Below are positions 294 through 52,368 of a stretch of DNA of 64,000 bases, piece by piece. The position numbers and the translations under genes are program-made. The notes under the pieces were generated by a model. That model had not been told where the DNA came from. It worked only from the letters and a program-made list of their open reading frames with translations, and did no database searches. Source of the stretch: Kiritimatiellia bacterium (lineage in GTDB: Bacteria > Verrucomicrobiota > Kiritimatiellia > RFP12 > UBA1067); assembly GCA_016296065.1 (NCBI GenBank), contig JAEDKA010000001.1, forward strand, positions 68,591-132,590, written 5' to 3'. The first letter of the stretch is position 1; each line of letters starts with the position of its first letter.

Positions 294-3200
294 ATGCCCC
301 AAAAAACAATCAAGACCCTTCTTTTCGCAACGTCGTCGGCGTTGTCCTTTGCTGCTTTTTCCGCGCAGATCTACTGGAAATCCACTGTAACAGAAGGATA
401 CATCGACACGACTGGCGACAGCAGTGGCTGGACTGGCGGGGTAGTCCCTGGCAATGGCGATGCAGGCGAATTCAACAACTCGCTGAGCGCGAATACAACA
501 TACACCGTGAAGATTCCGACGGAAGGCGGCTCCTTCACGTTCCCTGCGTCCATAGGCGGGGCGGCCATTCCGCAGGGCACGAAGGTAGTGTTCGACGCAA
601 CCGGGACGAAGTGGGTCATGTCGACTACGCCCGGTACCGCGTGGACGAAGGCCGTTCTTGAATTCAGCGATGCGAGCGGAGATATCTTCGGCATTCAGAA
701 CAGAGATGCGTCAAAGGATAGCGACTACTACGGCCTGAGCCTCGACGACGGCAAGATAAGCTACGAGCACGATGCGGACGGATATGTCGTGAAGCTCGAG
801 AGCGGAACGATCGACGCTTATAATCTTCCCGGCGGCGGAACCTCCCTGCATTCGCTCAGGCTTCTTTATTCGAACGGGAGTTCAAACAACAGGGTCGTGT
901 TCGGCGCAGGCACGAAGTCCGTCTTTCAGAGCGTCGTGATCGGCGGGCGTTCGCAGGGCGGCTATGTCCTCGTCGAGGGCGGCGAGCATAAGATTTACAA
1001 CGGGCTTAAGGTAGGCGGCTGGAACGACGCCCCGAATGCTGAACTGCGCATCACCGGCGGAACACTGTCTGCGATGGCGAGCGGCGGTTCCGTTGATGTC
1101 GGAGGAGCGGCCTGCCCGGCAAGGATCGTAGTCTCCGGAACGGGCGAGTTCACAAACGATGTGGGCTCGGTTTACTGTCCGAACAACAGCGGCGCCAACG
1201 GAACGATTGAACTTTCCGGCAATGCAAAGTGGATTCATGCGCGCGTGTTTGGTCTTGCCCTGGGTCACAGCGGCGGAACTGGCAGCATTTCCATGGGGGA
1301 CAACGCCGTCTTCTTGTCGCCAGGCGGTATCAATGTCGGTGACTCGGCGAACGGCACTGGCAGCATTCTGATCAAGGATGAGGCGGAAATGTCCGTAAGC
1401 ACCATCACCCTCAGCCATGCCGCCAATACGACGTCCGAGCTGACAATGCTCGGCGGCACGCTGAAACTTGCGTCCAATGCTTCCATCACCTCCGGCAACG
1501 GATCGCCGTTCAAGGGCGGCGCGGGCACGGTCAAGTGCCTTTTCGACGGTGGCACGATCATCCCTGGCGGAAACGATTCGCAGACCGTCCAAAGTGTGCC
1601 TGCCGTCGAGCTGGGTGTGAACGGCGTCACTGTCGATACCGGCTCCAATGGCAACGTCAAGTGGAGTGCGAAGACGCAGAACGCGAAGGACTCCCAAAAC
1701 AAGGATGTGGCCGGTCTGTTTGTCAAGGACGGCAGCGGCGTGCTTATCGTCAGAATGTCCGAGACGGACAATTCCGCCGTTGCGCCGTACAACGGACGCC
1801 CGCTCAACTCCGAGCATGCGAACACTTTCGTCAAGACGGGTACGCTTCGCTTCGACAACCAGAACGCGACGGACGGCTACTGCAGGTTCGGCAACAATGT
1901 CACTGTCAACGGAGGGGCGACGCTCAGTACGGAGTACAACGGCTGCACGCGTCTCAAGATGAATACTCTCACGCTCGGCGGAGAGACGGGTACGGCGACA
2001 GTTAAGCTCGACTTCGGTGATGTCGTCGAAATTGACGCAGCCGACGGGCTTGCCGTTGTCGGCTCGGCCCAGGTCGACATCTCCAACTGGACGTCCGCAG
2101 CCGTCGGCAGCGAGTATACCGTATTCAAGTGCGCAGGCTCCGTCCCGCTGGGCGTTCTTTCCAGAATCGTCATTTATGGAGTCTCGAACAGGGACTATGC
2201 CTGGAAGACCGCAACGGACGAGGGCGGCAACACTCTCTGCAACATCTACGTTGCCGAGGAAGGCATGCTACCGCTTACGATCACGTATGCGAACGACGCG
2301 GTGACGACGAACGGGCTCGGCACGGCGGTGACGGCCATCGTCGCCGAGCAGTCAGGGACGCAGGTCGGCGACATAACGCTCGCGCGCGGTACGTCTGTTT
2401 CAGTCGCGGAGGATATGACGCTCAACCTCACCGGCGACATGACAGGCGGCGGCACTTTGCTCACGAAGTCTGGCTCCGGCAAGCTTGTGGTGAGCGGCAA
2501 CAACTCCGGCTTTACCGGCTCGTTTGTCTCGCAGAGCGGAACGCTCGAGGTGAAATCCAGGGACGCGCTTGGTCCGCAGACGCTCACTTCACCTCTCGTC
2601 CTCGGGAATGGAACGTTCAAGTACAGCTCCAGTGATCCAGCCACGTTCAATGCCGCGCTGAAGCTCTCCGGCAATATCGCAGGCAAGGCGGTGATTCTCG
2701 ACAACACAGGCGACCTCACCTTCAACGGGCTGGTACATGAGAAGGGGCTTCTTGTCAAGAAGGGCGCAGGCGCGCTTGCGTTCGACCTCCCTGCCGGAAC
2801 CTACTATCTCGGACACGACAATATTGACGGCGATGGGGGAGAGCACGATGGTGACCTCGTGCTGCCCGAGAGCGGCGACGCACCCGAGACCAATACCGGA
2901 ATGTACGGCGTGACGATTGCCGAAGGTGCCTTGAAGATCAAGGGCACCGGGGCGGACGGAGCGTCGAAGACACAGGTCAACACCGACAATACCATCATAG
3001 TCGGCACCGGTTACGCGGCACAGGTGGCACCTGCGGTTGTCGTCGAGAATGCAAGGATGGAATTCGGCAAGGGAAGCCGTCACGGAACGATCATGGCACG
3101 CTATCCAGTTGCTAGCCCGGTTCCAGAGATACATCTCACCAACGCCTTTTTCCACGCCAACTTCCCGACGTTCGGGCGCCATACATCGACAGGCGGTGTG

Positions 3201-4232
3201 AGCGACATCGGTCCTACGGTCACCATGAGCAATTCCACCATTTCGTGCGAATGGAACTGCACCCTTGGCAGCGCCGGATTCGCGAGCGTAACCCTCGATG
3301 CCGACGACTCCGTGTTCAACATCGAGCGGAACGTCACCATTGCGGCGAGCAAATTCAACGCCGATTTCCACGGGAAAACAGCTGCGTTCTCCGCAAGCTA
3401 CAATTCAGGTTCCGAGGGTGGCTGGATTGCATCCCATAACCATCCGCAGGGCACGATCATGTTCCGTGACGGGGCTTCGATGAAAACGACACTTGGAATC
3501 CGCTTTGCCGGTTCCCAGCTCGAAGTGAAGTTCGACGGCGGCACGTTCGAGATACTTCCGCACAACACGGCGGAATGCAAGACGGCTACATCCACCTGGG
3601 TGAACGCCAACCGCGGCATCGAGACGACCGGAGCCGGAATGTCCGTCAAGATCGCCGAGGGGTCGACGCACGACTTCAACTTCCCGGTGAAGGGAACGGG
3701 TTCCGTGACGAAGACGGGTGCAGGAACGTTCAAGCTCGTCGCGCCGCGCACGGCGGGCGAGAAGCTCCTCCAGTACACGGGCGGTACGGTCGTCTCCAAC
3801 GGCACGCTCGTCGTGGACGGATCGCTTGTCGCGGACGGCGCGAAGTCGTTCGAGGTCGCAGAGGGCGCGACGCTTGACCTTAACGAATCGACGCTTGCAA
3901 GCGCGACAATCTCGGGCGCTGGTGTCGTCACGAACGGCACGCTCTCTGCGGCGACGATCGCCTACGACGCCGATGCGGTGCTCACCTTCGAGGATGTTGC
4001 GTTCAACGGCGCGCTCACGGTGGACTTCGGCTGCACGGCGGAGAATCCTCTCGACAGTGATGCCGGCAGAGCGGGCATCACCGTCGCGCACTACACCGGT
4101 GGGGCGCCGGTCATCGCGAAGGTCGTTCCGGCCAACACCGGCATTGTCCGCGCCAAGGCGAAGGTGGAGTGCAACGAAGGCGATATTGTCGTGACCGTCG
4201 TGCAGAGTGGACTGCAGGTGTACATCCGCTGA
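294..4232 (+). CDS. Giant secreted beta-helical surface protein with autotransporter-associated (PATR-type) beta-strand repeats and a GLQVYIR-stop tail
   Basis: Uninterrupted 1312-aa ORF. The signal peptide is MPQKTIKTLLFATSSALSFAAFSAQ. The sequence is rich in G/T/N/S repeats, including GGGTLLTKSGSGKLVVSGNNSGFTGSFVSQSGTLEV and GTGSVTKTGAGTFKLV...YTGGTVVSNGTLVVDG. The C-terminal half is collinear with CDS 7880-12421 (shared EGSTHDFNFPV and YTGGTVVSNGT). Confidence 0.85.
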   Translation: MPQKTIKTLLFATSSALSFAAFSAQIYWKSTVTEGYIDTTGDSSGWTGGVVPGNGDAGEFNNSLSANTTYTVKIPTEGGSFTFPASIGGAAIPQGTKVVFDATGTKWVMSTTPGTAWTKAVLEFSDASGDIFGIQNRDASKDSDYYGLSLDDGKISYEHDADGYVVKLESGTIDAYNLPGGGTSLHSLRLLYSNGSSNNRVVFGAGTKSVFQSVVIGGRSQGGYVLVEGGEHKIYNGLKVGGWNDAPNAELRITGGTLSAMASGGSVDVGGAACPARIVVSGTGEFTNDVGSVYCPNNSGANGTIELSGNAKWIHARVFGLALGHSGGTGSISMGDNAVFLSPGGINVGDSANGTGSILIKDEAEMSVSTITLSHAANTTSELTMLGGTLKLASNASITSGNGSPFKGGAGTVKCLFDGGTIIPGGNDSQTVQSVPAVELGVNGVTVDTGSNGNVKWSAKTQNAKDSQNKDVAGLFVKDGSGVLIVRMSETDNSAVAPYNGRPLNSEHANTFVKTGTLRFDNQNATDGYCRFGNNVTVNGGATLSTEYNGCTRLKMNTLTLGGETGTATVKLDFGDVVEIDAADGLAVVGSAQVDISNWTSAAVGSEYTVFKCAGSVPLGVLSRIVIYGVSNRDYAWKTATDEGGNTLCNIYVAEEGMLPLTITYANDAVTTNGLGTAVTAIVAEQSGTQVGDITLARGTSVSVAEDMTLNLTGDMTGGGTLLTKSGSGKLVVSGNNSGFTGSFVSQSGTLEVKSRDALGPQTLTSPLVLGNGTFKYSSSDPATFNAALKLSGNIAGKAVILDNTGDLTFNGLVHEKGLLVKKGAGALAFDLPAGTYYLGHDNIDGDGGEHDGDLVLPESGDAPETNTGMYGVTIAEGALKIKGTGADGASKTQVNTDNTIIVGTGYAAQVAPAVVVENARMEFGKGSRHGTIMARYPVASPVPEIHLTNAFFHANFPTFGRHTSTGGVSDIGPTVTMSNSTISCEWNCTLGSAGFASVTLDADDSVFNIERNVTIAASKFNADFHGKTAAFSASYNSGSEGGWIASHNHPQGTIMFRDGASMKTTLGIRFAGSQLEVKFDGGTFEILPHNTAECKTATSTWVNANRGIETTGAGMSVKIAEGSTHDFNFPVKGTGSVTKTGAGTFKLVAPRTAGEKLLQYTGGTVVSNGTLVVDGSLVADGAKSFEVAEGATLDLNESTLASATISGAGVVTNGTLSAATIAYDADAVLTFEDVAFNGALTVDFGCTAENPLDSDAGRAGITVAHYTGGAPVIAKVVPANTGIVRAKAKVECNEGDIVVTVVQSGLQVYIR

Positions 4233-7850: not shown

Positions 7851-7879
7851 ATAGGCGATCATTGACCAAGGAGGATCGA

Positions 7880-10800
7880 ATGAAACTTGCATCTAGCAAA
7901 TCATATATTAAATCCATCTCGTCCATGAGATGCCTTGCGGCGGCGGCAGTAGCTGGCGTTGCGGCGTTTTCCGCCAACGCAACCGAGAGAACTTGGCAGC
8001 CGCAGGGCGGCTCCACCGACATCAGCGCACAGAGCAACTGGGGCGGAACGCTTCCCGGCAACGGAGACAGGAAAAAATTCGCGGACGGTGGATACGCAAG
8101 CGACTATACGGTAACTATTCCGGCGGCCACGGCGGAGAACCCGTATCGCGACTATGCCGGACTTGTATTTGACGCCGTCACCGACGGACAGACCGTGACG
8201 CTGGACGCGACAGGTACGTCGTGGGTGCAGATGGGCGATGCGGGCCAGGCGTGGCAGGACAATGTTCCGTTCCGCGTCCGCTCTTGGGACCACATCTTCG
8301 ACATCGACAACGCGCACAACACGGAGAACCCCGCGAACAACTTCGGCTTTTCGCTTACGGACGGAACGATCTCGTTCAAGCGCGACTTGACGAATGGCTC
8401 CGTGCTGACCTTCAACGGCGACTTCAACATGGCGGTCGCCCCCGATGGCACGGAGAATGCGCACAGGACGGTTCTCTTCCATGATACAAACGCCAACAGC
8501 AAGAATTCCAAGATCATCTTTCACAGCGGCGAGTCGACGCTGCGGTGGATACAGTTTCGCGGCAAGACGGAGGGCAACGAGTTCCGCGTCGACGGAGGAA
8601 CCCTCCATGTCCTGAGCGGACTCGCAATCAACGAAGACTCGACAGGCGTCGATACAGATGCGTACATGCACGTGACGGACGACGGCCAGGTGTCCCTTGA
8701 TTCCGGCTCGCTGTGGATCGGCCGCAACAACGACGGGCGCGGCGTGCTGCGAATCGACGGGAACGGCAAGTTCACGATAAACAGCGGGACTACAGCCACT
8801 TATTTCCCCGATGGTTCTGCGCAGACAGGCCTTCTTTCCATCGGAGGGAACGGCGAGTGGAATTCGGTGAAGGACATGAATGTCGGCCATAACGGCGGCA
8901 CCGCCGACATTCTTGTCGAGGGGAACGGCGTCTTCAACCATTCCGGGGCGTTGAACTTCGGCGCCGGAAACGGATGTTCCGTCTCGCTTACTATGCAGGA
9001 CGACGCATACGCCGTTTTGCCGGCCGTTTCGATGATGCGGGACATAGCAGCCGACCAGCAGCGCACGGGCGTCATCACGCTAAAGGACGACGCGGTTCTC
9101 GATATCATGGTGCGGTTCGGAAACTGGGTCAACGGCGCAAGTGGAGACCTCACCATCAACATGTCGGACAACGCAAAGCTCCGTGCGAGCCAGAACGACG
9201 GAAACAACTGGATTCGGTTCGGTGACAACAACACCTCGAAGTTTACTCTCAATCTTGCCGGTGGCACGATCGAGAAGTTCGGCGGCGGTGAACTCGTTCA
9301 TTTCCAGCTCAAGGGCGGGGCGGAGAGCGAGTACAACTTCGCCGGCGTGACGCTTGACACTCAGAACTTCGCAATCGAAGGCAAGGCGGATACGTCCGCT
9401 CCGGATGCCTGGCATATCGCCCATCAGACGGCTGGTACTATCAATGTCCGCTGGCATGGCTCGGGCGACGGTCTCGACATCCGCGGCGGAAACGGGCGCA
9501 ACTGCATGTACCTTCTCGAGGGCGGTACGCTCAACGTCGGCAACATGATGCGCGTCGGACATGGCAATACCGACAGCAGCAAACAGTGGCGCTCAGTGTT
9601 CCGCCAGACTGGCGGTCAGGCGAACATCAGCGCGAATGTCAATATGTGCGACTCCGCTACGATGGCCGAATTCGAGCTTCTCGGCGGGCGTACGCGTCTT
9701 ACTTCCCTGCGCGGCTGGAACCAGAGCGTTGCGCGCAACGCCAACGGTGCCTGGGCGACGGCGCTCTTCGACGGCGGCACCATCGAGCCGTGGGCGGATG
9801 GATATGAAGTCATCTACACGATGCCGGAGCTTCGTCTCGGTGCGAAGGGGTTGACGATCGACACTGTCGGATATGCTGAGACGCGCATCGCGGCGAAGTT
9901 CCAGAACGAGGGCGAGGGGACGGAAGACGAAGTTGACGGACTGTTCGTCAAGACCGGTGCAGGCACCCTCAAGGCCAAGATGGTCGAGACAAACGGACTT
10001 TATGTCAACCGTGATCTGCGTAGCTATCATGCCTTCACGCGCGTCGATCAAGGCACGCTTCTTCTATCTGACGCCGCCGATGCCGCATTTGGCAAGAACA
10101 TCATCGTGAAGGGCGGCGCGACGCTCTCGCTCGCGGGCACTGCCCAGACGCTCACGGTCGATACGCTCACGCTCGGCGACGGGAACGGAGTGGCGGCCCT
10201 GGCTCTTGATGCCGGCGACAAGATAGTCGTCAATGCCGAAAACGGACTTTCGGTGAACGCTGCGATGGTTGATTTCTCGTCTGTGACGGTTAACGACATC
10301 TATCCCGTCTTCGTCTGCGCCGGTGCCGTCGATATTGCGGCGGTGAGCGACATCAACATCATTCCGAACGCGGACCATGACTGCGAGTGGACCAGCTCCT
10401 ATGACGATGGAACCGGCGTCACGACGTTTTCGATCCACGTTGCCGCCGCAGGGACGATCGGCAAGACCATCACATACGGCAATGGATCCGTCACCACGAA
10501 CGGAGAAGGCCGCGTCGCCAGGCTCATCGCGAACGAGACAGGCACGCAGTACGGCCAGCTCGACCTGACGAGCGCCGCTGCCGCGACAGTCGATGCAGGC
10601 GCCACGCTGACGCTCGGCGGCGATCTTCACATCCCCGCAGGCGGAACTCTTTCGAAGCGCGGCTCCGGCAAGCTCGTCGTCAACGGTGACAATTCCGCTT
10701 TCTCCGGGTCCTTCGCTTCGCATGGCGGAACACTTGAAGTCAGCGACGTGGATGCGCTCGGAAAAGACCCGCTCTCCTTCCCGCTCGTCCTCGGCAACGG

Positions 10801-12421
10801 CACGTTCAAGTACACGGGCGATGCCGTCACGTTCAACGCGGCGCTCAAGTTCCAGGGCGAGACGGCCGGCAAGTCCGTGATTCTCGAGAATGACGGCGAC
10901 ATGACGTTCCCCGACGTCCAGCACGTGAGCGGAACCTTCGTCAAGAAGGGCGTCGGCGCGCTTACGCTCGATCTCCCCGCGGGTTCGTTCAAGCTCGGCA
11001 ACGACGCGGTTGACGGGGATTATGGAATCCAGGACGGGATCGTTGAATTCCCGGCGAGCGGCGATGCACCGGAGTCCAAGACCGGACTCTGCGGCGTGAC
11101 AATCGCCGAGGGTACGCTGAAGGTCAAGGGACAGGGCGTCGACAAGACGACTGTGTCCACCGAGAACACGTCTCTCCTCGGCACAGGCTACGCCGCCAAG
11201 GCCGCGCCTATCCTTGAAGTCGAGGACGCGCGCGTCAACTTCGGCAAGGGTTCCCGCCATAGCCGTATCATGTCGCGGTATCCTGCCGGTGCGCCCGTTC
11301 CGGAGATACGCCTCAAGAACGCCATCTTCAACACGAACAGCGGTTATGTAGGGGCCAGCTCCGACGCGTCCGACCGCCGTGGTCCGATCATCACGATGAA
11401 GGACTCCGTATTCTTGGGCGACTACAACACCTATCTCGGCGTTGCCGGCTTCGCCAGCCCTGAGGTCGATGCGGACAACTCGAGCTTCATCACCGAGGGA
11501 GCGCTTGGAATCACCATCGCAGCCGCGAAGCTGACGGCCGACTTCTACGGAACGAACGCGGTGTTCGGATCGTATTCGAAGATCGAGGCTGGGGCGAACT
11601 ACGGCGGACGCATCGCCTCCCAGAACCACGTTACCGGCGAGGTGAAGATCCGCGACGGCGCGCGTATGAAGACGACCCGCGGAATCGACTTCGCATTCGG
11701 TTCCTTGTCCGTTGTGTTCGACGGCGGCATCTTCGAGATCGTCTCGCACAATGTTGAATCACAGCGCGCCTGCACGTCGGTCTGGCAAAAGGCGGGAACG
11801 GCATTCACGACGCAGGGCAAGGGCCTTGAGATCCTCATCGCCGAAGGCTCCACGCACGACTTCAACTTCCCCGTCGTCGGCGAAGGCAGGGTCGTCAAGA
11901 CGGGCGAGGGCACGTTCAAGCTCGTCGAGGCGCGCGCTGAGGGCGAGAAGCTCATCCAGTACACGGGCGGAACGGTCGTCTCGAACGGAACGTTCGTCGT
12001 CGACGGATCGCTCGTTGCGGACGGCGCCAAGTCGTTCGAGATATGCGCTGGCGCTGTCCTCGACCTGAACGGCTCTGTGCTCACGAACGCAACGATCGCT
12101 GGCGCGGGACGGGTTGTGAACGGGACGCTCGTGAACTCGACGCTCGCCTACGACGCCGATGCGCTCACTACATTCGACGGAGTTGAGTTCGACGGTGTGC
12201 TCTTCGTCGACTTCGGACGAACGGCGGAGGATCCGCTCGACAGGACCGAGGCCAAGGCGGGAATCCTCGTCGCGCACTATGCGGAGGGCACTGTCCCCGA
12301 GTTCATGAAGGTCAAGGCGCTCAACACGGGCATTCCACGCGCGAAGGCAGGCGTGAGCTGCGTTGACGGCGACATTATCATCACAACGGTCCAGACCGGA
12401 TTCGAAGTGCGCCTTCGCTGA
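7880..12421 (+). CDS. Giant secreted beta-helical surface protein (PATR-type repeats), paralog of 294-4232, with a GFEVRLR-stop tail
   Basis: The ORF-track start at 7802 is TTG and runs through the promoter module. ATG 7880 lies 5 nt after AAGGAGG (7868-7874). The signal peptide is MKLASSKSYIKSISSMRCLAAAAVAGVAAFSANA. A PATR-like repeat reads GGTLSKRGSGKLVVNGDNSAFSGSFASHGGTLEV. Long blocks are collinear with CDS 294-4232. Confidence 0.85.
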   Translation: MKLASSKSYIKSISSMRCLAAAAVAGVAAFSANATERTWQPQGGSTDISAQSNWGGTLPGNGDRKKFADGGYASDYTVTIPAATAENPYRDYAGLVFDAVTDGQTVTLDATGTSWVQMGDAGQAWQDNVPFRVRSWDHIFDIDNAHNTENPANNFGFSLTDGTISFKRDLTNGSVLTFNGDFNMAVAPDGTENAHRTVLFHDTNANSKNSKIIFHSGESTLRWIQFRGKTEGNEFRVDGGTLHVLSGLAINEDSTGVDTDAYMHVTDDGQVSLDSGSLWIGRNNDGRGVLRIDGNGKFTINSGTTATYFPDGSAQTGLLSIGGNGEWNSVKDMNVGHNGGTADILVEGNGVFNHSGALNFGAGNGCSVSLTMQDDAYAVLPAVSMMRDIAADQQRTGVITLKDDAVLDIMVRFGNWVNGASGDLTINMSDNAKLRASQNDGNNWIRFGDNNTSKFTLNLAGGTIEKFGGGELVHFQLKGGAESEYNFAGVTLDTQNFAIEGKADTSAPDAWHIAHQTAGTINVRWHGSGDGLDIRGGNGRNCMYLLEGGTLNVGNMMRVGHGNTDSSKQWRSVFRQTGGQANISANVNMCDSATMAEFELLGGRTRLTSLRGWNQSVARNANGAWATALFDGGTIEPWADGYEVIYTMPELRLGAKGLTIDTVGYAETRIAAKFQNEGEGTEDEVDGLFVKTGAGTLKAKMVETNGLYVNRDLRSYHAFTRVDQGTLLLSDAADAAFGKNIIVKGGATLSLAGTAQTLTVDTLTLGDGNGVAALALDAGDKIVVNAENGLSVNAAMVDFSSVTVNDIYPVFVCAGAVDIAAVSDINIIPNADHDCEWTSSYDDGTGVTTFSIHVAAAGTIGKTITYGNGSVTTNGEGRVARLIANETGTQYGQLDLTSAAAATVDAGATLTLGGDLHIPAGGTLSKRGSGKLVVNGDNSAFSGSFASHGGTLEVSDVDALGKDPLSFPLVLGNGTFKYTGDAVTFNAALKFQGETAGKSVILENDGDMTFPDVQHVSGTFVKKGVGALTLDLPAGSFKLGNDAVDGDYGIQDGIVEFPASGDAPESKTGLCGVTIAEGTLKVKGQGVDKTTVSTENTSLLGTGYAAKAAPILEVEDARVNFGKGSRHSRIMSRYPAGAPVPEIRLKNAIFNTNSGYVGASSDASDRRGPIITMKDSVFLGDYNTYLGVAGFASPEVDADNSSFITEGALGITIAAAKLTADFYGTNAVFGSYSKIEAGANYGGRIASQNHVTGEVKIRDGARMKTTRGIDFAFGSLSVVFDGGIFEIVSHNVESQRACTSVWQKAGTAFTTQGKGLEILIAEGSTHDFNFPVVGEGRVVKTGEGTFKLVEARAEGEKLIQYTGGTVVSNGTFVVDGSLVADGAKSFEICAGAVLDLNGSVLTNATIAGAGRVVNGTLVNSTLAYDADALTTFDGVEFDGVLFVDFGRTAEDPLDRTEAKAGILVAHYAEGTVPEFMKVKALNTGIPRAKAGVSCVDGDIIITTVQTGFEVRLR

Positions 12422-28309: not shown

Positions 28310-30496
28310 ATGAGAAAAACTGCAGTTGTGTTGGCGGTGGCGGCGGTTGCCGCCGGCGTTGGTGCCGTTCCGAACGACGCGCGTCGCGCGGAGGCGGAGA
28401 AGGAGGCGAGGGCCGTTCTCGAAAAGCTGACGCCGGATGAGAAGGTCCAGATGCTCATGATGGACAATCCCGAGATCAAGCGCATCGGCATCCCGCGCTT
28501 CCACTGGTGGAGCGAGGCGCTGCACGGGTACGCGCGGAGCGGACTCGCGACGGTGTTCCCGCAGGCGATCGGCGCGGCGGCGACGTTCGACGACGAGCTC
28601 GAGCTAAGGATGGCGGATGCGATTTCGACCGAGGCGCGCGCTAAGGTGAACCTGTACCGCGCCCAGGGCGAGCGCGGCGGGAACCACTGCCTTTCGCTGT
28701 GGAGCCCGAACGTCAACATGGACCGCGATCCGCGATGGGGGCGCGGGCAGGAGACGTTCGGCGAGGACCCATACCTCACCTCGCGCATGGGCGTCGCGTT
28801 CGTGAAGGGCATTCAGGGCGACGATCCGAAGTACCTGAAGGCCGTCGCGTGCGCGAAGCACTACGCCGTCCACTCCGGTCCCGAGAAGAAGCGCCACGAG
28901 TTCAACGTGAACCTCGACGACCGCGATCTCTACGAATACTACCTCCCGGCGTTCAAGGCGCTCGTGAAGGAGGCGAAGGTCGAGAGCGTGATGGGCGCGT
29001 ATTCGGCGGTCAACGGCGTCCCGTGCTGCGCGAACAAGCGGCTTCTCGTCGACATCCTGCGCGGCGAGTGGGGCTTCCGGGGAACCGTCGTCAGCGATGT
29101 CGGAGCAGTCGACGACATCTGGAAGAACCACAAGTACAGGAAGAACGCGGTCGAGGGCGACCTTGCGGCGATCGAAGGCGGACTCGACCTCTGCAGCGAG
29201 GCCACGTACCACCACATGCGCGGCCCTGTAAAAGAGGGCAAGATCGACCCCGCGATCTTCGACAAGCCGCTCATGCACATCCTCACCACGCGCGCGCTGC
29301 TCGGCGACCTCGACCCCAAGGCGAAGACGCCATGGGACAACCTCGGCGAGAAGGACGTCAACAACGCGAAGCACAAGGCCATCGCGCTCGAGTGCGCGGA
29401 GAAGTCGATCGTGCTTTTGAAGAACGACGGCGTGCTGCCCCTCGACGCCTCCAAGCTCAAGCGCCTCGACGTCACCGGGCGCTCTCGCGAGGAGCACATC
29501 CTCATGGGCAACTACAACGGCGAGCCGGCCGACGCCGTGACGATTCTCAAGGGCTTCCTGCGCGAACTCGGGTCGGGCGTGTTCATCGACACGACGAGCG
29601 ACTCCGATCCGCTCGTGCGCGTCATCGGACTCTGCCCGATCGACGAAGGCGAAGACCGCGACCGCAAGGACATCGGCATGTGGCCGCAGCAGCTCAAGGA
29701 ACTGCGCAGGGACCGCCAGCGCCGTCCCGAGAGGAAGATCATCGCCGTTGTTCCCGGCGGCAGCGCGATGGACCTGCGCGAAGTGTGCGAACTCTGCGAC
29801 GCGGTCCTCGTATGCTGGTATCCGGGCGAGCTCGGCGGCACCGCGGTCGCGCGCACCGTCGTCGGAAAGAACAATCCATCCGGCAGGCTCCCAGTCACGT
29901 TCTACCGCAACCCCGGCAAGATGCCCGACTTCGAGGACTACACCCTGCCCGGGCGCACCTACCTCTACACCGACCAGAACGTGCTGTATCCGTTCGGCTA
30001 CGGGCTCAGCTACACTACGTTCGCCTACAATGGCATAAAGGCGGACACGCGCAACCTTCCCAAGACCACGGCGGCGGTGGAGATAGACCCCGACTTCTCG
30101 ATTCGCCGCGACGAGGCGGGGCAGAGCCAGTCCGACGCCGGCGAGAAGCGTCCGAAGCAGGCCGCCGCTCCCGTGGCGCCCTCCGCCCCGATGCTGACGG
30201 TCTCGATCGACGTCGAGAACACCGGCGCCGTTGCGGGCGACGAAGTCGTGCAGCTCTACGTCCGCTCGCCCGAGGATTCCGGCGACCGCCGCATCCACCA
30301 CCTCGAGGGCTTCAAGCGCGTCTCGCTCAAGCCCGGCGAGAAGAAGCGTGTGTCGTTCGCGCTCACGGCCGGACAGCTGGCGCAGTTCGGAAAGGACGGA
30401 CGCCAGACACTTGCGAAGGGCGTCTACCGCATATTCGTCGGCGGCGGGCAGCCAGGGTACTGCGACAACACGAAGTGCATCATGGTAGAACTGTAA
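28310..30496 (+). CDS. GH3 beta-glucosidase / beta-xylosidase (BglX-like), paralog set member 1
   Basis: 728-aa ORF. Motifs are PRFHWWSEALHGYARSGLATVFPQAIG, RDPRWGRGQETFGEDP, GTVVSDVGAV and FPFGYGLSYTTF. It carries a low-complexity insert of about 45 aa (about 30045-30190) that the three paralogs lack. Confidence 0.92.
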   Translation: MRKTAVVLAVAAVAAGVGAVPNDARRAEAEKEARAVLEKLTPDEKVQMLMMDNPEIKRIGIPRFHWWSEALHGYARSGLATVFPQAIGAAATFDDELELRMADAISTEARAKVNLYRAQGERGGNHCLSLWSPNVNMDRDPRWGRGQETFGEDPYLTSRMGVAFVKGIQGDDPKYLKAVACAKHYAVHSGPEKKRHEFNVNLDDRDLYEYYLPAFKALVKEAKVESVMGAYSAVNGVPCCANKRLLVDILRGEWGFRGTVVSDVGAVDDIWKNHKYRKNAVEGDLAAIEGGLDLCSEATYHHMRGPVKEGKIDPAIFDKPLMHILTTRALLGDLDPKAKTPWDNLGEKDVNNAKHKAIALECAEKSIVLLKNDGVLPLDASKLKRLDVTGRSREEHILMGNYNGEPADAVTILKGFLRELGSGVFIDTTSDSDPLVRVIGLCPIDEGEDRDRKDIGMWPQQLKELRRDRQRRPERKIIAVVPGGSAMDLREVCELCDAVLVCWYPGELGGTAVARTVVGKNNPSGRLPVTFYRNPGKMPDFEDYTLPGRTYLYTDQNVLYPFGYGLSYTTFAYNGIKADTRNLPKTTAAVEIDPDFSIRRDEAGQSQSDAGEKRPKQAAAPVAPSAPMLTVSIDVENTGAVAGDEVVQLYVRSPEDSGDRRIHHLEGFKRVSLKPGEKKRVSFALTAGQLAQFGKDGRQTLAKGVYRIFVGGGQPGYCDNTKCIMVEL

Positions 30497-37740: not shown

Positions 37741-37925
37741 AGCAACAAACAAAGGAGGTTCTATGGTCATGAAGTCGTTGCATCGCATGGCTGCTAAGTC
37801 GCTGTGGTTTGTGTTGGCGTTCGCCGCTGTGTCGGCGCTTGCCGACGACATGCCGGCGAACTACACGCGGCTCGACTGGATCGAGTCGGACGCCACGAAT
37901 CAGCAGTGGATCGACTCTGGGTACA
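37675..37925 (+). repeat. Duplicated promoter / 5'UTR / signal-peptide cassette, copy A
   Basis: Near-identical to 39725-39975. Shared runs include caaaggaggttctatggtcatgaagtcgttgcatcgcatgg, ctgtggtttgtgttggcgttcgccgctgtgtcggcg and ccggcgaactacacgcg.ctcgactggatcgagtcggacgc. Confidence 0.85.
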
Positions 37926-39670
37926 GTCCTAATACGGCCACAATAATCAACGTTTCATTACTTGCGCGAAGCCCGAAGGACGCATGGGCAGTGTTTTTTG
38001 GTGTGATCGAAGGATCAACCTCTGCAACATCGGTGAGATTTCGCTACGACGGCAATTCCCATCTTCAGGGACTGTTTGGTAACTCAAACGCATCTGAAGG
38101 ACAAATTGACTCCGTTAAAGACGGCGAATATCAGATTGAATTGAAGTCCGGCTGTTTTAACATTACTCGTGCTGGATCGGATCCGGTATCGAAACAACTA
38201 ACTTCCGGCACAACCATCGTAAATGCGCCGATGTACATTTTCTGCCAGAACGAATATACGAGCGCTACGGGCAAATCGGCGCCGAGCCGCTATCAGCCCA
38301 TGCGTCTTTATTCAATGGCGATAAGAGAAGGTGACACGCCGAAGCGCGACTTCATCCCCTGCATGGACGACAAAGGTATCTGCGGTCTGTGGGATAATGT
38401 AGAAGGGAAGTTTTACACGAACAAGGGCACTGGAGCAGGATTTACGGGAGGGGTCACTGTCGCGGCGGGGGCGACTCTTGCAATCCCCGCAAGCAAGAAT
38501 ATTCTTACAGAATCCGAGATCGACGCCATGACGAGCAAAATTGCGCGCTTCGACCCGGACTGCGAAGCTGACATAGATTTCAACAACGATAAAACGATGG
38601 TTCATGCTGTGTTTGATCACGGCAAGATGGCAGTGGACGGGACCCCGTATATTCACGCAACTTACGCAATCGGAGGTGATCGCCGTCCTACCTATTCTCG
38701 CCAGGCGAGAGGCTACGGTCCAGTCCGTGGTTGGATGGATCTTCATGCTGATTCGGATTCCGGCACAAAGAAAGGCAATAATCTTCGCGTCAAGACAGAC
38801 CACTCTTTGAAACATGGCAATGATTCTGGTAGTGTTCCTCTTGGCGTCAAGACCGCATTTATAGTTATGGACAGCAGCTACGGCGGAGGTCTTCCAATTA
38901 TCGACGCAATAAATCCAGGAAACATTGTAAAGGCGCGTACATATAGTGACTTTACGTCTCCGATCTGGGGTAGCGGAACCTCGTCTATCCTCACAGGCGG
39001 AGAGACGAGACTCAACGGCATTGCAGTTAGCGGCACGACAACTGGTTTCACAGGCGCGCCGGAGCTTTTCTCTTTTACAACCGATGGCCATGAATTCAAT
39101 GCCGCTTTCTTCGGTTATTACAACGCCGGTGGTGATCAGGCCTACGAAGTCCTAGGCGAGATCGTTCTGTTCAGCGAAGTGCTTGATGCTGATACGCGCG
39201 GCGGTGTCGAGGCGTATCTTATGAAGAAGTGGCTTGGCACGCTGCCGCCAGGATATGCGGACTGGACGGGCGCGACTGTAAGCGGCGCAGGAACAGTGAC
39301 TGCCGCAGAACCGAAAGGGCTGCCGCAGTTTGACAACTTCACTGGAACGCTCGAGTTTTCGCAGGAGTCCCTTGATTTCACGATCGACTGCGTCAACGGA
39401 ACTGTCGCCGAGGCGTTCGACATCGGCAGTGCGACGCTGAAACTTGCGGATGAAGGTGTTTTCAATCTTTCCTTCAAGGACGGCATCGTTCAGCCGGGGA
39501 CATACATACTCGGCTCATTCGGAACGGTTGACGGAGCCGGGGTGTCTTGCTGGGCAGTGACGCCGGAGTATACGGCAGATGACAGGTACAGGATAAAGGT
39601 CGTTGCCACTACCGATGCCGAACTCGTCGCGAAAGTTATGCCCTTCGGCATGCTGTTCATCGTGCGGTGA
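37763..39670 (+). CDS. Secreted jelly-roll / LamG-type surface protein with an FGMLFIVR-stop tail
   Basis: 635-aa ORF. GGAGG at 37754-37758 precedes ATG 37763; an alternative ATG lies at 37769. The signal peptide is MVMKSLHRMAAKSLWFVLAFAAVSALA. The N-terminal module contains NYTRLDWIESD...RLYSMAI...FIPC. A LamG-like block reads YEVLGEIVLFSEVLDADTRGGVEAYLMKKWLG. The C-terminal ~400 aa are collinear with the end of CDS 39813-43148. Confidence 0.85.
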   Translation: MVMKSLHRMAAKSLWFVLAFAAVSALADDMPANYTRLDWIESDATNQQWIDSGYSPNTATIINVSLLARSPKDAWAVFFGVIEGSTSATSVRFRYDGNSHLQGLFGNSNASEGQIDSVKDGEYQIELKSGCFNITRAGSDPVSKQLTSGTTIVNAPMYIFCQNEYTSATGKSAPSRYQPMRLYSMAIREGDTPKRDFIPCMDDKGICGLWDNVEGKFYTNKGTGAGFTGGVTVAAGATLAIPASKNILTESEIDAMTSKIARFDPDCEADIDFNNDKTMVHAVFDHGKMAVDGTPYIHATYAIGGDRRPTYSRQARGYGPVRGWMDLHADSDSGTKKGNNLRVKTDHSLKHGNDSGSVPLGVKTAFIVMDSSYGGGLPIIDAINPGNIVKARTYSDFTSPIWGSGTSSILTGGETRLNGIAVSGTTTGFTGAPELFSFTTDGHEFNAAFFGYYNAGGDQAYEVLGEIVLFSEVLDADTRGGVEAYLMKKWLGTLPPGYADWTGATVSGAGTVTAAEPKGLPQFDNFTGTLEFSQESLDFTIDCVNGTVAEAFDIGSATLKLADEGVFNLSFKDGIVQPGTYILGSFGTVDGAGVSCWAVTPEYTADDRYRIKVVATTDAELVAKVMPFGMLFIVR

Positions 39671-39790: not shown

Positions 39791-39975
39791 TACCATAAAC
39801 AAAGGAGGTTCTATGGTCATGAAGTCGTTGCATCGCATGGTTGCTGAGGCTCTGTGGTTTGTGTTGGCGTTCGCCGCTGTGTCGGCGTTTGCCGTTGACC
39901 TGCCGGCGAACTACACGCGTCTCGACTGGATCGAGTCGGACGCGGCTGGTCTTCAGTGGATTGATTCGGGGTACC
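39725..39975 (+). repeat. Duplicated promoter / 5'UTR / signal-peptide cassette, copy B
   Basis: See 37675-37925. The layout is the same: module, a predicted 16-nt leader containing AAAGGAGG, and MVMKSLHRM....LWFVLAFAAVSA.A....PANYTRLDWIESDA. Confidence 0.85.
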
Positions 39976-42900
39976 AGCCGCAGGCGACGACTGTCGTCCG
40001 CGCCTCGATCCTCGCAAGGGCGAGAAGAGTCGACTGGGCGGCGTTCTTCGGCATCATGAGCGACGACAAACCGAACTATTCGGTCGTCTTCCGCTATTTC
40101 AACAACTCTAATTTCAACGGCATCTTCTGCAACTCCGACTATACGGAAGCCGGCATCCCGTCCACGGCGAACCTGGAGTATGATGTAGAGCTAAAAAGCG
40201 GCTCTCTGACGGTCACCGGCAGTGCGGCGACAACGAAGACGATAACCACTGTCAACAGTCCGGCTGCCGCGCCAATCTACATTTTCTGCCAAAACAACTA
40301 TGCATCGTCATCTGGAACGTCGTCGGCGAACCGCCATCAGCCAATGCGCCTCTATTCGATGACGATAAGCGAGGGGAACGTGCCGAAGCGCGAATTCATC
40401 CCCTGCATCGACCCCGACGGGGCATACGGGCTCTGGGATACAGTCGAAGGCGTGTTCTACGGCAACAAAGGTACGAAGGGTGACTTCACAGGCGGTGTCA
40501 TATACAATGCCGCGGCGAACGAGAGGCTTACGATCCCGAGCGCAGCTGGCACAGTCGAACTGCGCGGCGCAAATGCCGCGACATCAGAGTTTGAGATCGA
40601 GTCCGCCGAGGCGGGGACTCTTGTATACGTCATGAATAATTCAAAGGGCGTCACGATTGATTCCGTTGGCGAAGGAGTGAACATCATCGTCCGCAAGATT
40701 CCGTCCTCCGACACTCCCGTGACGCTCGCTCTTCCCGCTGGACAGATGATCGATTCGCTTACGATCGAGGATGGGGTGACAGTATATCTCGAGTCCGGGT
40801 CTGTCGGCTCTTTCGAAGGTACTGGCAAACTCGTTGTACAGGGAGTTGTTGGCTACGGCACGATTTCAGACGGCATCGACGTCAAGATCGAGGCGGACGC
40901 GTCGATGTCGAACATTCTTGACGATGCGCTCGCGTCGGCGCTTGGAGACATTCCCGCGCTCTGGCTCGACGCTTCGGACGAGACGACATTGCAGGAGTAT
41001 TCGTACAATGGGCACACTGTTCCCGACGGGACTTTCCCCGGAATCGTCGTCCGCCGTTGGGATGACGTTCGCGGTGGCTCGGATCGTCTCTATGCCGTGA
41101 ACGCCCGTTCGTCGACAGGCTCTACCGACGGTGGCTACATACGGACGATGCCGTATTCCGTCACGAACGAACTTAACGGGCTGACTGTTGTCTCTTTCGG
41201 AACCTCCGGCGGAAATGTCGGTGGCGCGCAGAACTCGATAGACGCGAACGGCAATCCTGCGACCGACTCGCGGGCGGAGCAGCGCCGTATGGTTTTCAAC
41301 CAGCCGATTGCGTCTAAGACGATCGTGATGGTCTACGGCTCGCAGGACGGCGGCGGCATGGCGCTTGTGGGCGGTTGGAAGAGCGGGCAGACCGGCGAGG
41401 CGCAGAATCCTCTTCCCGGCGAGACGATCGCTGCTTCTGGACAACCAACGTACTACAACCGCAATGCGGCGAACATCGAGTCTACGACAATAGCGAATGG
41501 CCGCAAGAATGTCCCTTGCTGGGTCGATGGTACGGCGATAGTGCCGAACGAGACGGCTGCACTTGACGGTGGGTACCAGATTATCTCACTAGGCGTCGCG
41601 CCGGGCGATTCGCCGAGCGTGCGCTCGCTCGGCATGTCAGACGAGTATCAGAATGCCGGCGGACAGCGTTACGGCGAAATACTCATTTTCACCAACGAGC
41701 TGACAACCGTGCAGCGCAAGGCCGTCGAGTTCTATCTCGCGAAGAAGTGGGGCCTGACCGAAGGGTACAGTGCAGGTGGACGTCCGCGTTCCCTCGAAAT
41801 AGCGGATGGAGGTTCGTTTGAGACGGTCGACTCCACGATCGACATTTCGCACAGCGGCGGAACCATCTCGGTATGCGGCGCGCTCGAGGCAGGCGGTGTT
41901 GCTGTCGGAAGTGTTTCCATCGCCGAAGGTGCTTCCCTTACTCTCCCGGCCGCGGATCCGTTCACTGAAGAGCAGGTGGATGCCGTTGATGGCAGGATTG
42001 CGCGCTTTGACCCCGACTGCACTGATGACATTTTCTTCAACAACCAGAATGACCAGGGGATCCGGTTGATATGCGACCACGGCAAAGGCGGTGTGGAAGA
42101 CGCGACTTGCCTCTATGCCTACTACACTGGTACTGGAAACGACAGGCGTCCTGTCTGGTCGAAGTCGGCCAGGGGCTTCGGACCTGAACGTGGCTGGATG
42201 GATTTCTACGCTTGGGCGACGTCCAGCGATGTCAAGGGCGACAATCTGCGTTTTACGACGTCAGGGAATTCCGTCCGGAACACAAGCGCCAACAACAATC
42301 CTACAGCTGTCGCCAAGTCCATCAAGACCGCGTTTATCGTGATGGACAGCTGCTATGGCGGCGGACTTCCCATCATCGACAAGGTTTCTCCCGACGGTGG
42401 CAGCATAGTCAGAGGACGTTCTTCGTACACAGACCCGACCGCGCCGATCTGGGGCAGCGGTACATCGCAGATCCTGACCGGGGGCGAGACCAGGATTAAC
42501 GGAATGGCTGTTGATGGTACAAAAACAGGCTTCACGGGTGCGCCCGAGCTCTTCTCGTTCACGACGAACGGTGACGATTTCAACGCATCCTATTTCGGTC
42601 TCTACAACGCCGGTAATCCAGAGCGGTCTTATGAAGTCCTTGGCGAGATCGTTGTGTTCAGCAATGTGCTTGACGATGAGACGCGCGGCGGGATCGAGGC
42701 GTATCTCATGAAGAAGTGGCTTAACATGCTGCCGCCAGGATATGCGGACTGGACCGGCGCGACTGTAAGCGGAGCGGGAACGGTGAAGGCGCAGCGTCCG
42801 AAGGACCTTCCTCAGTTCGAGAACTTCTCCGGCACGCTTGAGTTCACGGCGGCGACACTTCCGTTCACTCTTGACGGCGAGACGAAGACGGCCCTCGACG

Positions 42901-43148
42901 CGTTCGACATTGGCGACGCGACGCTGAAACTCCCTGCGGAAGGCGAGATAGTCATTTCGTTCGCCGGGCGCGCACGGATAGGCACCTACACGCTCGGCAC
43001 ATTCGGCTCGCTCGTCGCGCCAGGCATCGCGGACTGGACCTGTACGCCGTGCACTGCGGACGGCAGGTATAAGATCAGAGTTAAGGTGCAGCACGGTTCG
43101 CTCATTGCGGACGTCGTCTCCTCGGGCCTTAACGTGCGAATTCGCTAA
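39813..43148 (+). CDS. Giant secreted jelly-roll / double-LamG-type surface protein with a GLNVRIR-stop tail
   Basis: The ORF-track start at 39603 is TTG and overlaps the previous gene and the promoter. ATG 39813 follows GGAGG (39804-39808) and gives the same signal peptide as CDS 37763. There are two LamG-like blocks (GEILIFTNELTTVQRKAVEFYLAKKWGL and YEVLGEIVVFSNVLDDETRGGIEAYLMKKWLN). Confidence 0.85.
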   Translation: MVMKSLHRMVAEALWFVLAFAAVSAFAVDLPANYTRLDWIESDAAGLQWIDSGYQPQATTVVRASILARARRVDWAAFFGIMSDDKPNYSVVFRYFNNSNFNGIFCNSDYTEAGIPSTANLEYDVELKSGSLTVTGSAATTKTITTVNSPAAAPIYIFCQNNYASSSGTSSANRHQPMRLYSMTISEGNVPKREFIPCIDPDGAYGLWDTVEGVFYGNKGTKGDFTGGVIYNAAANERLTIPSAAGTVELRGANAATSEFEIESAEAGTLVYVMNNSKGVTIDSVGEGVNIIVRKIPSSDTPVTLALPAGQMIDSLTIEDGVTVYLESGSVGSFEGTGKLVVQGVVGYGTISDGIDVKIEADASMSNILDDALASALGDIPALWLDASDETTLQEYSYNGHTVPDGTFPGIVVRRWDDVRGGSDRLYAVNARSSTGSTDGGYIRTMPYSVTNELNGLTVVSFGTSGGNVGGAQNSIDANGNPATDSRAEQRRMVFNQPIASKTIVMVYGSQDGGGMALVGGWKSGQTGEAQNPLPGETIAASGQPTYYNRNAANIESTTIANGRKNVPCWVDGTAIVPNETAALDGGYQIISLGVAPGDSPSVRSLGMSDEYQNAGGQRYGEILIFTNELTTVQRKAVEFYLAKKWGLTEGYSAGGRPRSLEIADGGSFETVDSTIDISHSGGTISVCGALEAGGVAVGSVSIAEGASLTLPAADPFTEEQVDAVDGRIARFDPDCTDDIFFNNQNDQGIRLICDHGKGGVEDATCLYAYYTGTGNDRRPVWSKSARGFGPERGWMDFYAWATSSDVKGDNLRFTTSGNSVRNTSANNNPTAVAKSIKTAFIVMDSCYGGGLPIIDKVSPDGGSIVRGRSSYTDPTAPIWGSGTSQILTGGETRINGMAVDGTKTGFTGAPELFSFTTNGDDFNASYFGLYNAGNPERSYEVLGEIVVFSNVLDDETRGGIEAYLMKKWLNMLPPGYADWTGATVSGAGTVKAQRPKDLPQFENFSGTLEFTAATLPFTLDGETKTALDAFDIGDATLKLPAEGEIVISFAGRARIGTYTLGTFGSLVAPGIADWTCTPCTADGRYKIRVKVQHGSLIADVVSSGLNVRIR

Positions 43149-52000: not shown

Positions 52001-52277
52001 CGAATCGGGACGCGGCGTTCGCGTGACTGGTCCGGAGCCTCTTTTCGTGCAGGCGCTGCACTACACCTGGGAGGACCTCTGGTTCGCTGCGTTCAAGAAC
52101 GGCGAGGACCGCTATCGCGCGGCGCTTGTGCCGCGTCCGGAGGTGTGCCTCAACATCGACGCTCGCCAGACTGGACTTGGCGGCGCCTCTTGCGGCCCCG
52201 GGCCGATGTGGAAGTACCGCTTCGATTCGTCTAAGCCCGTCAGCTGGACGTATCGGCTCGAGAGCGTCGCCCGGTGA
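49086..52277 (+). CDS. GH2 beta-galactosidase (LacZ-type architecture)
   Basis: 1063-aa ORF. Motifs are NRHETNPENGR, VRTSHYPNHHLWYDLCDRYGLYV, WSMGNETG, FMCEYAHAMGNALGN and GGCIWDWIDQ. The C-terminal small-chain-like domain reads VRPQDSGMACDVRWAEF. Confidence 0.92.
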   Translation: MKKSLFLMMCVPAFAAVAAAGDAAQPEPWADTSVNSINRLPAAAFLPPLADEKAALSDALVPETPYVKSLNGDWRFKWVGDPARRPLDFWKEDFDDSTWGTIDVPSCVEMRGYGVPMYTNIRYPHKITPPKILDRDTGRADYNPVSSYRTTFTVPSDWKGRDVILRFDGVYSAYTVWVNGKRVGYAEDSKLPSEFDVTPYLNGTTNRLCVQSFRWCDGSYLEDQDMFRFSGIFRDVSIYARPKDGIRDVLASTKLKIENGKCKEASITLKGIDGDWSATLYDAAGKSIASLNSQLSTFNFQPSSLPRLWSAEDPYLYTLVVKKGDDIRSLKVGFKEQKVVGHTFMVNGMPVKLKGVNRHETNPENGRTVSLEDMVRDITLMKRYNINTVRTSHYPNHHLWYDLCDRYGLYVVAEANVEGHEPAYGDNGLGRKPEWDHTIVERNVRQVLFYRNHPSITMWSMGNETGHGDCFVHAIDAVRKLDPGRLIHWERGNTLADVDSRMYPDVDWVDKKGKLGDGPANGETMEDKYSRPESAYSAGKPFFMCEYAHAMGNALGNFQEYWDVIYKHESLVGGCIWDWIDQAIWKETDRIGPDGRPVRVLAYGGDFDEQPNDGPFCVNGVIDPERNVTPKLLEVGQVHRNLIVTKRDDGSFELLNRNCFTDANAFDGSWELIADGLPVAKGAVKVPSVAPLARGTIEAVGLADAVARRSKTEELFVNFSFATRTDAPWAKAGWIVACDQIQLSAGERKAKSVAADASAVRFDSTDDALTVSCGKTVATFSRRTGTLSKLVMDGMAILSDAAPGFASGPRLTCARGFTDNDKWIATGDSWRNERSRSFFGSGLSQLRYHPEPLVVSNDTVTAVVDVAGAKGCGFRHTTSWTFNADGSIDVANKSEPYGKLPVLARLGVSLRLSPALERMKFYGRGPQENYIDRKTSAFLGVWESTVTDRFVSYVRPQDSGMACDVRWAEFTDESGRGVRVTGPEPLFVQALHYTWEDLWFAAFKNGEDRYRAALVPRPEVCLNIDARQTGLGGASCGPGPMWKYRFDSSKPVSWTYRLESVAR
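49954..49988 (+). repeat. Five tandem imperfect heptamers (ctctcaa ctctcaa ctctcga ctttcaa ctttcag) inside the beta-galactosidase CDS
   Basis: Read directly at 49954-49988. The repeat lies in a locally low-GC patch (about 49835-49995) and encodes ...SLNSQLSTFNFQ... Confidence 0.8.
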
Positions 52278-52296
52278 AGGCGCCTGCTTTTTTGCC

Positions 52297-52362
52297 TTGC
52301 GTAAATTTCACGATATTTTCTGCGTTGTGTTCACGCAGCAGAAATGTGCTATATGCTATAAT
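52297..52362 (+). promoter_or_regulatory. Promoter module copy 8, predicted leaderless start for CDS 52369-54423
   Basis: Unit 1 is TTGCGTAAATTTCACG (52297-52312) and unit 2 is CTGCGTTGTGTTCACG (52319-52334). A 32-nt spacer leads to TGcTATAAT (52354-52362). The spacer gaaaac is followed by ATG 52369, with no Shine-Dalgarno sequence. Confidence 0.6.
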
Positions 52363-52368
52363 GAAAAC

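Follow-up and report, generated by a model that had tools for sequence, protein, structure and literature searches.

Four giant secreted proteins, P1 to P4, are encoded in the window analyzed here, a stretch of 64,000 nucleotides from the genome of a gut Kiritimatiellia bacterium (contig JAEDKA010000001.1), and all four end in a similar heptapeptide, in which a glycine and a terminal arginine enclose five mostly hydrophobic residues. An earlier note on this DNA took this tail to be a short, self-contained signal carried by proteins that are otherwise unrelated. This view could not be maintained, as P1–P4 share a C-terminal domain (CTD) of 110–135 amino acids (aa) that is predicted to be beta-helical and carries several further motifs. 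Alignment places the heptapeptide last among the conserved motifs of this domain. The CTD represents a new, lineage-restricted and strictly C-terminal domain, beta-helical by prediction, with a fixed G-h5-R-COOH end (h, hydrophobic residue), and is carried by giant exported proteins that are non-catalytic.

A shared C-terminal domain in giant exported proteins

All four ends fit the pattern G-x-x-h-x-h-R-stop and read back exactly where the earlier note had placed them. The C-terminus of P1 (4179–4229) is GDIVVTVVQSGLQVYIR, which ends in SGLQVYIR and is followed by a TGA stop codon at 4230–4232, and those of P2 (12368–12418), P3 (39629–39667) and P4 (43107–43145) end in TGFEVRLR, FGMLFIVR and SGLNVRIR, respectively. 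The pattern is absent from the ends of the other ~20 plus-strand genes of the window, as had been claimed. Sec-type signal peptides were identified on all four proteins (4/4). The listed open reading frames (ORFs) of P2 and P4 start at TTG codons (7802 and 39603); the ATG codons at 7877 and 39813 are the likelier true starts, and P1 and P3 likely start at 294 and 37763 (Table 1). A search for an RNA element or terminator overlapping the P1 tail gave only one terminator-like site, ~140 nt downstream and not above shuffled sequence.

Table 1. Coordinates of the four giant proteins and of their C-terminal domains in the window.
Feature	Position	Strand	Length	Evidence and remarks
P1, giant secreted PATR-type beta-helix protein	294..4232	+	1312 aa	ORF and signal peptide; PATR repeat PF12951 / TIGR02601
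CTD of P1	3894..4229	+	112 aa	Alignments A2/A3/A5; BLASTP vs P4 CTD, E=4e-5; tail GLQVYIR at 4209–4229
P2, giant secreted PATR-type beta-helix protein	7877..12421	+	1514 aa from ATG at 7877	PF12951 / TIGR02601
CTD of P2	12080..12418	+	113 aa	Alignment A2; 63% identical to P1 C-terminal 148 aa; tail GFEVRLR at 12398–12418
P3, secreted 'LamG-like' protein, shortened paralogue	37763..39670	+	635 aa	No Pfam match
CTD of P3	39263..39667	+	135 aa	Alignments A2/A5; tail GMLFIVR at 39647–39667
P4, secreted 'LamG-like' protein	39813..43148	+	1111 aa from ATG at 39813	49 relatives; no Pfam domain in this protein part
CTD of P4	42750..43145	+	132 aa	AlphaFold-modelled sequence; tail GLNVRIR at 43125–43145

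When the last ~150 residues were aligned, the similarity among P1–P4 reached back to the motif 'A-T-x-S-G-A-G-x-V', 110–135 residues before the end. Over this stretch, BLASTP matched the beta-helix protein P1 to the 'LamG-like' P4 (E=4e-5). Because P1–P4 share the entire last 110–135 residues, the four tails are judged homologous rather than independent occurrences. Other conserved motifs of the CTD are GxG, LPxFxxxFxG, F39, GxYxL and W96.

The distribution of the CTD was assessed by an exhaustive profile search of 1.84 billion representative proteins (E≤1e-3, clustered at 50% identity). The CTD was found in 143 protein clusters, with P0017 as the top match (E=9.5e-50); here and below, four-digit P-numbers denote collected relatives and L-numbers denote fetched loci. 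With a local profile and the two CTD searches pooled, the CTD was placed ≤3 residues from the C-terminus in 144 of 155 proteins. Full-length members range in size from 900 to 1550 aa, and 61 of the 64 have signal-peptide-like N-termini. Two architectures were recognized among these 64 members, 'LamG-like' (55 members, ~1000–1400 aa) and PATR beta-helix (9 members). The few members that carry names appear in their source as 'hypothetical protein [Kiritimatiellae bacterium]' or '[bacterium]', and every source-named member, like the matching genome record, belongs to the Kiritimatiellae (PVC superphylum). Other searches recovered far less: word-indexed homologue searches with CTD profiles returned only 16 and 8 fragment matches, a genome search with a narrow CTD alignment returned only 2 loci, and a degenerate DNA pattern for ATVTGAGTV, run against metagenomes, gave at least 7 CTD loci among the matches listed, which were mostly chance matches.

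Searched against Pfam and NCBIfam at a threshold as loose as E≤10, 114 CTDs yielded no recurrent match to the domain. The full-length P1–P4 matched only PATR in the same databases, in P1 and P2, and a phmmer comparison of the complete P1 and P4 with PDB sequences gave no match. The LamG label that the earlier note had given to P3 and P4 found no backing, as neither protein has a Pfam or NCBIfam match, and members of the same family (P4 with its six relatives P0028, P0033, P0044, P0056, P0066 and P0072) show no Pfam domain at E≤0.01. The only trace of LamG is a weak Laminin_G_3 match below the cut-off (E=0.0015) in a distant relative from L062. The label thus stands as unverified and is kept here in quotation marks only. 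A literature search on LamG, sorting signals, PEP-CTERM or a type IX secretion system (T9SS) in Kiritimatiellae returned nothing relevant.

Collectively, the CTD defines a family of proteins of 900–1550 aa in which this domain has no Pfam or NCBIfam annotation, and one 90% cluster alone comprises 522 member sequences. Within the Kiritimatiellae of gut and rumen, the 'LamG-like' family makes up a sizeable block of protein space without annotation. These bacteria degrade glycans and are abundant both in guts and in sediments; to our knowledge, the Sus-like and T9SS systems whose workings are understood from Bacteroidota are missing from the Kiritimatiellae.

The P3 orthologue in a near-identical contig of a metagenome-assembled genome (L001, 3679–6894) is 1071 aa long, and a 433-aa central block of it (residues 229–661) is missing from the 635-aa P3 of the window. 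The short form also exists elsewhere, as P0017, a close homologue of P3, likewise has 635 aa. Since the short form recurs, it is probably a real deletion or a P3/P4 paralogue recombination rather than an assembly error. In the contig of 'Kiritimatiellae bacterium Tb.RUG.298' the P4 CTD is 98% identical and the gene order is the same over the contig part compared, and the exact window proteins also occur in a Logan assembly.

The PATR-type members (window 7877–7990; P0020, P0025, P0027 and P0030) have unusually long signal-peptide n-regions with the loose pattern K.Y.K..SS…GGR.S..Y. These n-regions are reminiscent of the 'extended signal peptide' of type V secretion, but the Pfam ESPR family gives no match.

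Conservation of the terminal heptapeptide

Residue frequencies in the tail were determined from 149 sequences anchored at the C-terminus. Glycine occupies position -7 in 142 of them (95%), and position -6 is T, L, M or F in 132. Position -4 is I, V, L, F or M in all 149, and these residue types also predominate at -3 and -2. The last residue is R in 114 members, K in 17 and Q in 10 (R/K 131/149, 88%), whereas Y was found three times and F once. No C-terminal extension was found in any of the 149 members, although column identity averages only 27%. The earlier note described the terminal strand as amphipathic, which applies to some members; in the wider family the five residues before the arginine are mostly uniformly hydrophobic (e.g., GMILLVR, GTVIIVR). 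The tail is also kept in orthologues: among 45 relatives of P4 (30–92% identity), 43 retain the motif and all retain the length.

The background rate of the pattern is low. A six-frame scan of the window and four fetched loci identified it in 10 of 307 ORFs ≥150 aa, all of which are CTD or CTD-like. With a slightly stricter regular expression, 20 of 1791 ORFs ≥150 aa were picked up in ~970 kb of fetched DNA; only 2 of them look spurious, which gives a background of ~0.1%. These data indicate that the tail is a real element, far from chance. Its restriction to giant proteins, which the earlier note had put forward, was borne out, the carriers being signal-peptide-bearing and non-catalytic; wherever the window, the fetched loci and the relatives allowed a check, none of the outcomes by which the earlier note would be refuted was seen.

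The same ending was also identified on C-terminal modules that escape the CTD profile. The protein encoded at 3527–6940 of L002 ends in …LVLCPNKGLLILVR and has no match to the CTD profile at E≤10. Three consecutive tail-bearing genes are located in L032, and two of their products have the ends …RVPGEGSMLIFR and …LLCPRGTVLTFR on modules missed by the profile. A protein of L062 (…SSVGGTMLLLK) and the PATR proteins P0258 (…LGFMLLVR) and P0259 (…VGFVITIR) also carry the tail on modules undetected by the profile. This recurrence argues for selection that acts on the heptapeptide itself and reaches past a single fold.

Predicted fold and comparison with known C-terminal signals

A first AlphaFold run, based on 15 sequences, gave one model with a pLDDT of 72 and four with values near 45; it was unreliable and was superseded by a model from a 114-sequence multiple sequence alignment. 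In this AlphaFold2 model, the P4 CTD is all-beta (pLDDT 89.1, pTM 0.76). The CTD is predicted to form a short right-handed beta-helix, a fold class that we consider likely. The last eight residues of the model (end SSGLNVRIR) form no strand pairing, and the pLDDT there is ~67 and then 51.

Foldseek of the CTD model against PDB gave nothing at E≤0.001. The nearest structure is the xylan-binding CBM89 module 7jvi_A (E=0.01, probability 0.99), with a TM of only ~0.49, followed by other right-handed beta-helices, namely pertactin (E=0.024), Hap and Ag43. At the sequence profile level, the best PDB match is the beta-helix 'putative adhesin' 3ljy_A (E=3.8e-4), which is DUF4097-like and covers CTD positions 6–122, with the tail outside. 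Like the CTD, CBM89 is non-catalytic and occurs in a glycan-degradation setting (PMC8810776). Both matches are weak, exclude the tail and do not establish membership in either family, and CBM89 differs in having 14 turns and an N-terminal position on an enzyme. We know of no fixed C-terminal motif in modules of the CBM89 or 3LJY type.

The closest likeness to the tail was found in T9SS. Two unrelated metagenomic proteins were picked up by the regular-expression scan, L056 (2352–5006, minus strand; …GKVTVLR) and L091 (2–9667, minus strand; …GAVTLLR), and both match TIGR04131 / PF13585, verified type B sorting domains. Their ends, G-x-V-T-[VL]-L-R-stop, share G-x-h-x-h-h-R at the free C-terminus with the CTD, which may be convergent. 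Type B CTDs are also strictly C-terminal on very large, Sec-exported, adhesin-like proteins, and are ~100 aa long with several motifs. They are uncleaved and serve as surface anchors for cargo on PorP/SprF-like outer-membrane barrels (PMC9143113). Mutation of any of their five motifs A–E abolishes secretion; motifs B, D and E lie on beta-strands, and the predicted fold is a four-strand beta-sheet (PMC12618676). T9SS has been described as limited to Bacteroidota/FCB (PMC11611037, PMC12398890).

No homology to these domains was detected. TIGR04131, TIGR04183 and PF13585 gave no match in the 114 CTDs at E≤10, nor did TIGR04131 or PF13585 in P1–P4, and hhalign of alignment A5 against type B CTDs gave a probability of 0.4%. 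Among the neighboring genes in the window, L003 and L125–L129, no T9SS core genes or PorP/SprF-like Pfam families were identified. The Kiritimatiellae CTD thus differs from type B CTDs in its predicted fold (a beta-helix instead of a four-strand sheet), in the lack of sequence or profile homology, in its occurrence in a PVC lineage with no described T9SS and in not being found on enzymes; no adjacent PorP/SprF-like gene was seen at these loci. The earlier note had excluded a T9SS CTD on the ground that the tail was too short. The exclusion stands, supported by the missing model matches and profile homology and by the PVC lineage, but that argument is invalid, since the tail ends a domain of 110–135 aa. 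Because hhalign, the model searches and the predicted fold separate the two and no PorP-like neighbor was seen, their resemblance is at most functional or convergent.

Other known signals could also be set apart, in agreement with the earlier note. The tail is not PEP-CTERM, as it has no PEP motif, five hydrophobic residues, one arginine and no TIGR02595 match; proline at -9 is present in only 32% of tails. A canonical PEP-CTERM protein (…PVPEPTSGLLLLVGGALLALRRRRR, L126 8719–9225) is encoded directly upstream of a CTD protein, and the same arrangement occurs in L029, which suggests that this lineage uses PEP-CTERM sorting as well. The CTD protein of L126 belongs to the most populous cluster (P0193; 522 members). 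The PEP-CTERM protein of L126 is itself preceded by a >3200-aa protein and two small secreted proteins. LPXTG is absent from all four sequences.

Nor is the tail the end of an outer-membrane protein (OMP) barrel, as the terminal residue is mostly R or K and rarely aromatic, and the domain is modelled as a beta-helix. The generic beta-signal pattern, G-x-x-h-x-h, fits the tail when shifted by one residue. With the OMP beta-signal recognized by BamA/Omp85, the tail shares a position fixed relative to the free C-terminus, a glycine followed by hydrophobic residues at +3 and +5, and a short terminal strand suited to augmentation. It differs in its terminal Arg/Lys in place of Phe/Trp/Tyr, in one extra residue after the pattern, and in sitting on a domain that is predicted to form no membrane barrel.

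Autotransporters and PATR proteins ending in PEP-CTERM share PATR repeats with P1 and P2, but not with P3 and P4. The CTD model superposes weakly on the passengers pertactin, Hap and Ag43, and the CTD starts with a PATR-like 'A-T-x-S-G-A-G-x-V' rung. In contrast to these proteins, the CTD has no barrel, PEP motif, transmembrane helix or poly-Arg, and the stop codon follows 6 residues after the Gly turn. P1–P4 stop 110–135 aa past their last body domain, and the 12-strand autotransporter barrel PF03797 gave no match in them.

Possible roles of the CTD and genomic setting

We tentatively propose that the CTD is a module for docking or retention that uses its free hydrophobic edge strand to bind a partner in the envelope through strand augmentation. 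This proposal is based on the homology and spread of the CTD, the fixed register of the tail at the free C-terminus, its conservation in orthologues, its position outside the confidently modelled fold, its portability, the exported nature of its carriers and the likeness to type B CTDs. A short beta-helix stalk would present a free and very hydrophobic edge strand of five residues, with an invariant Gly turn before it and an arginine with its free carboxylate at its end. The most plausible partner, to whose beta-sheet this strand could add, would be an outer-membrane beta-barrel such as those of the Omp85, FadL or PorP type. Docked in this way, the giant glycan-binding proteins would stay on the cell surface, and the same interaction may in addition guide them through the outer membrane. 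The uncleaved T9SS type B CTD on PorP/SprF and the OMP beta-signal on Omp85 would be the analogous cases, with the CTD belonging to neither family. Elsewhere, passengers of the PATR beta-helix type have an autotransporter barrel or PEP-CTERM at their C-terminus. A C-terminal device on this scaffold is therefore normally an anchoring or sorting device.

Several observations weigh against docking. No conserved partner, be it an outer-membrane or a translocon gene, and no Omp85, PorP or autotransporter Pfam match was identified near the CTD genes in nine loci. The CTD occurs only on two adhesin-like architectures and on 0 of the ~20 secreted enzymes of the window, and it is therefore not a general secretion tag. 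The low AlphaFold2 confidence at the terminal strand is weak evidence, as the tail could be packed against the end of the helix or against an upstream domain outside the model. The fold neighbors, namely CBM89 (7JVI), a beta-helix that binds carbohydrate, and adhesin passengers, call for no sorting role. The tail is also only one among several well-conserved motifs of the CTD, and not the best conserved.

The main alternative, which we hold to be a serious but doubtful one, is that the tail is purely structural and caps a beta-helix that possibly binds glycans, or forms its last partial rung, with the glycine as the final turn, the arginine as a charged 'gatekeeper' against edge-to-edge aggregation, and no machinery involved. 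The predicted fold with its neighbors (7jvi_A, pertactin and 3ljy) is consistent with such a cap, as are the equal conservation of several other CTD motifs, the location of the genes in loci of carbohydrate-active enzymes (CAZymes) without a partner gene in the nine loci, and the hydrophobic positions of the tail, which vary among I, V, L and F as core strands do. However, the model from 114 sequences leaves the tail unpacked, without strand pairing and with a pLDDT of 51–67, and both faces of the tail are hydrophobic, an unusual feature for a last strand exposed to solvent. The tail's length after the glycine is invariant in 95% of the 149 highly divergent members, and it recurs on modules that the CTD profile cannot detect.

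Tail-mediated self-assembly appears improbable. By strand exchange or head-to-tail stacking of beta-helices, adjacent paralogues would build fibers or a surface layer. Tail-bearing genes are indeed clustered (P3 and P4 are adjacent, P1 and P2 are one gene apart, two are located in L002 and three in L032), sequences such as GTVIIVR and GMILLVR appear on inspection strongly prone to beta-aggregation, and the ends of beta-helices are natural stacking surfaces. The adjacency is explained equally well by tandem duplication, though, and many loci are single-copy (L003, L125–L127); neither an acceptor groove nor a matching N-terminal motif was identified.

That a known system has these proteins as its true substrates is hardly credible, although a PEP-CTERM protein lies upstream in L126 and L029, the tail loosely resembles 'V-x-P-x-G + hydrophobic + R', and its heptapeptide recalls both type B ends and the shifted beta-signal: a degenerate PEP-CTERM/exosortase substrate is contradicted by a hydrophobic run of 5 instead of ~20 residues and a single basic residue, besides the missing PEP motif and TIGR02595 match; a genuine T9SS type B domain in PVC by the profile results, the predicted beta-helix fold, the lack of a PorP/SprF neighbor among the genes inspected and the description of the system as limited to Bacteroidota/FCB; and a beta-signal for the beta-barrel assembly machinery by a domain modelled as a soluble-type beta-helix that ends in Arg.

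If the docking proposal is extended, Kiritimatiellae, and perhaps other PVC bacteria, might have their own C-terminal sorting or anchoring system, in which a dedicated outer-membrane partner would recognize the CTD and its G-h5-R-COOH strand. Such a system, which we regard as speculative and rather unlikely, would be convergent with the type B CTD/PorP pair and would represent a third device for PATR-type giants beside the autotransporter barrel and PEP-CTERM. Should a partner exist, the PVC superphylum would have a new route for sorting or anchoring; without one, the CTD still represents a new family of beta-helix modules tied to glycan-foraging loci. Being confined to the C-terminus and closed by a fixed motif, it provides a handle for an annotation hidden Markov model, for a motif census or phylogenetic profiling, and for a truncation or extension test.

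The window (G+C content 61.6%) represents one very large glycan-degradation locus, with all plausible genes on the plus strand and a run of signal-peptide-bearing CAZyme genes. The predicted enzymes include several members of glycoside hydrolase (GH) family GH2, as well as GH3, a GH28-like beta-helix, a GH63/MGH1-like enzyme and a SASA esterase, together with an FAD-oxidoreductase fused to a GDSL lipase and Golvesin_C. The locus is without SusC/D-type genes. Related loci are similar and contain CAZymes, proteins of unknown function and AraC-type or two-component regulators.

Four further paralogous secreted proteins of ~690–730 aa are encoded in the window (28310–30496, 30510–32561, 47019–49085 and 52126–54423). 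They share an N-terminal 'VP.DARR.E.E' and a C-terminal 'SLAKG.Y..FVGGGQPG', the former of which is not visible in the TTG-start reading of 52126–54423. Other secreted proteins have a different motif near the C-terminus, [FY][FY]R[VI], with the ends …SAFFRVRDETTAIE, …QFFRVGRNPLN, …YKFYRVDVTVTSAEGN and …NRFYRIRIK, each directly before the stop codon (window 46950–46997; L126 7095–7874 and 1–7052; P0041). This motif may mark another conserved terminal module in the lineage.

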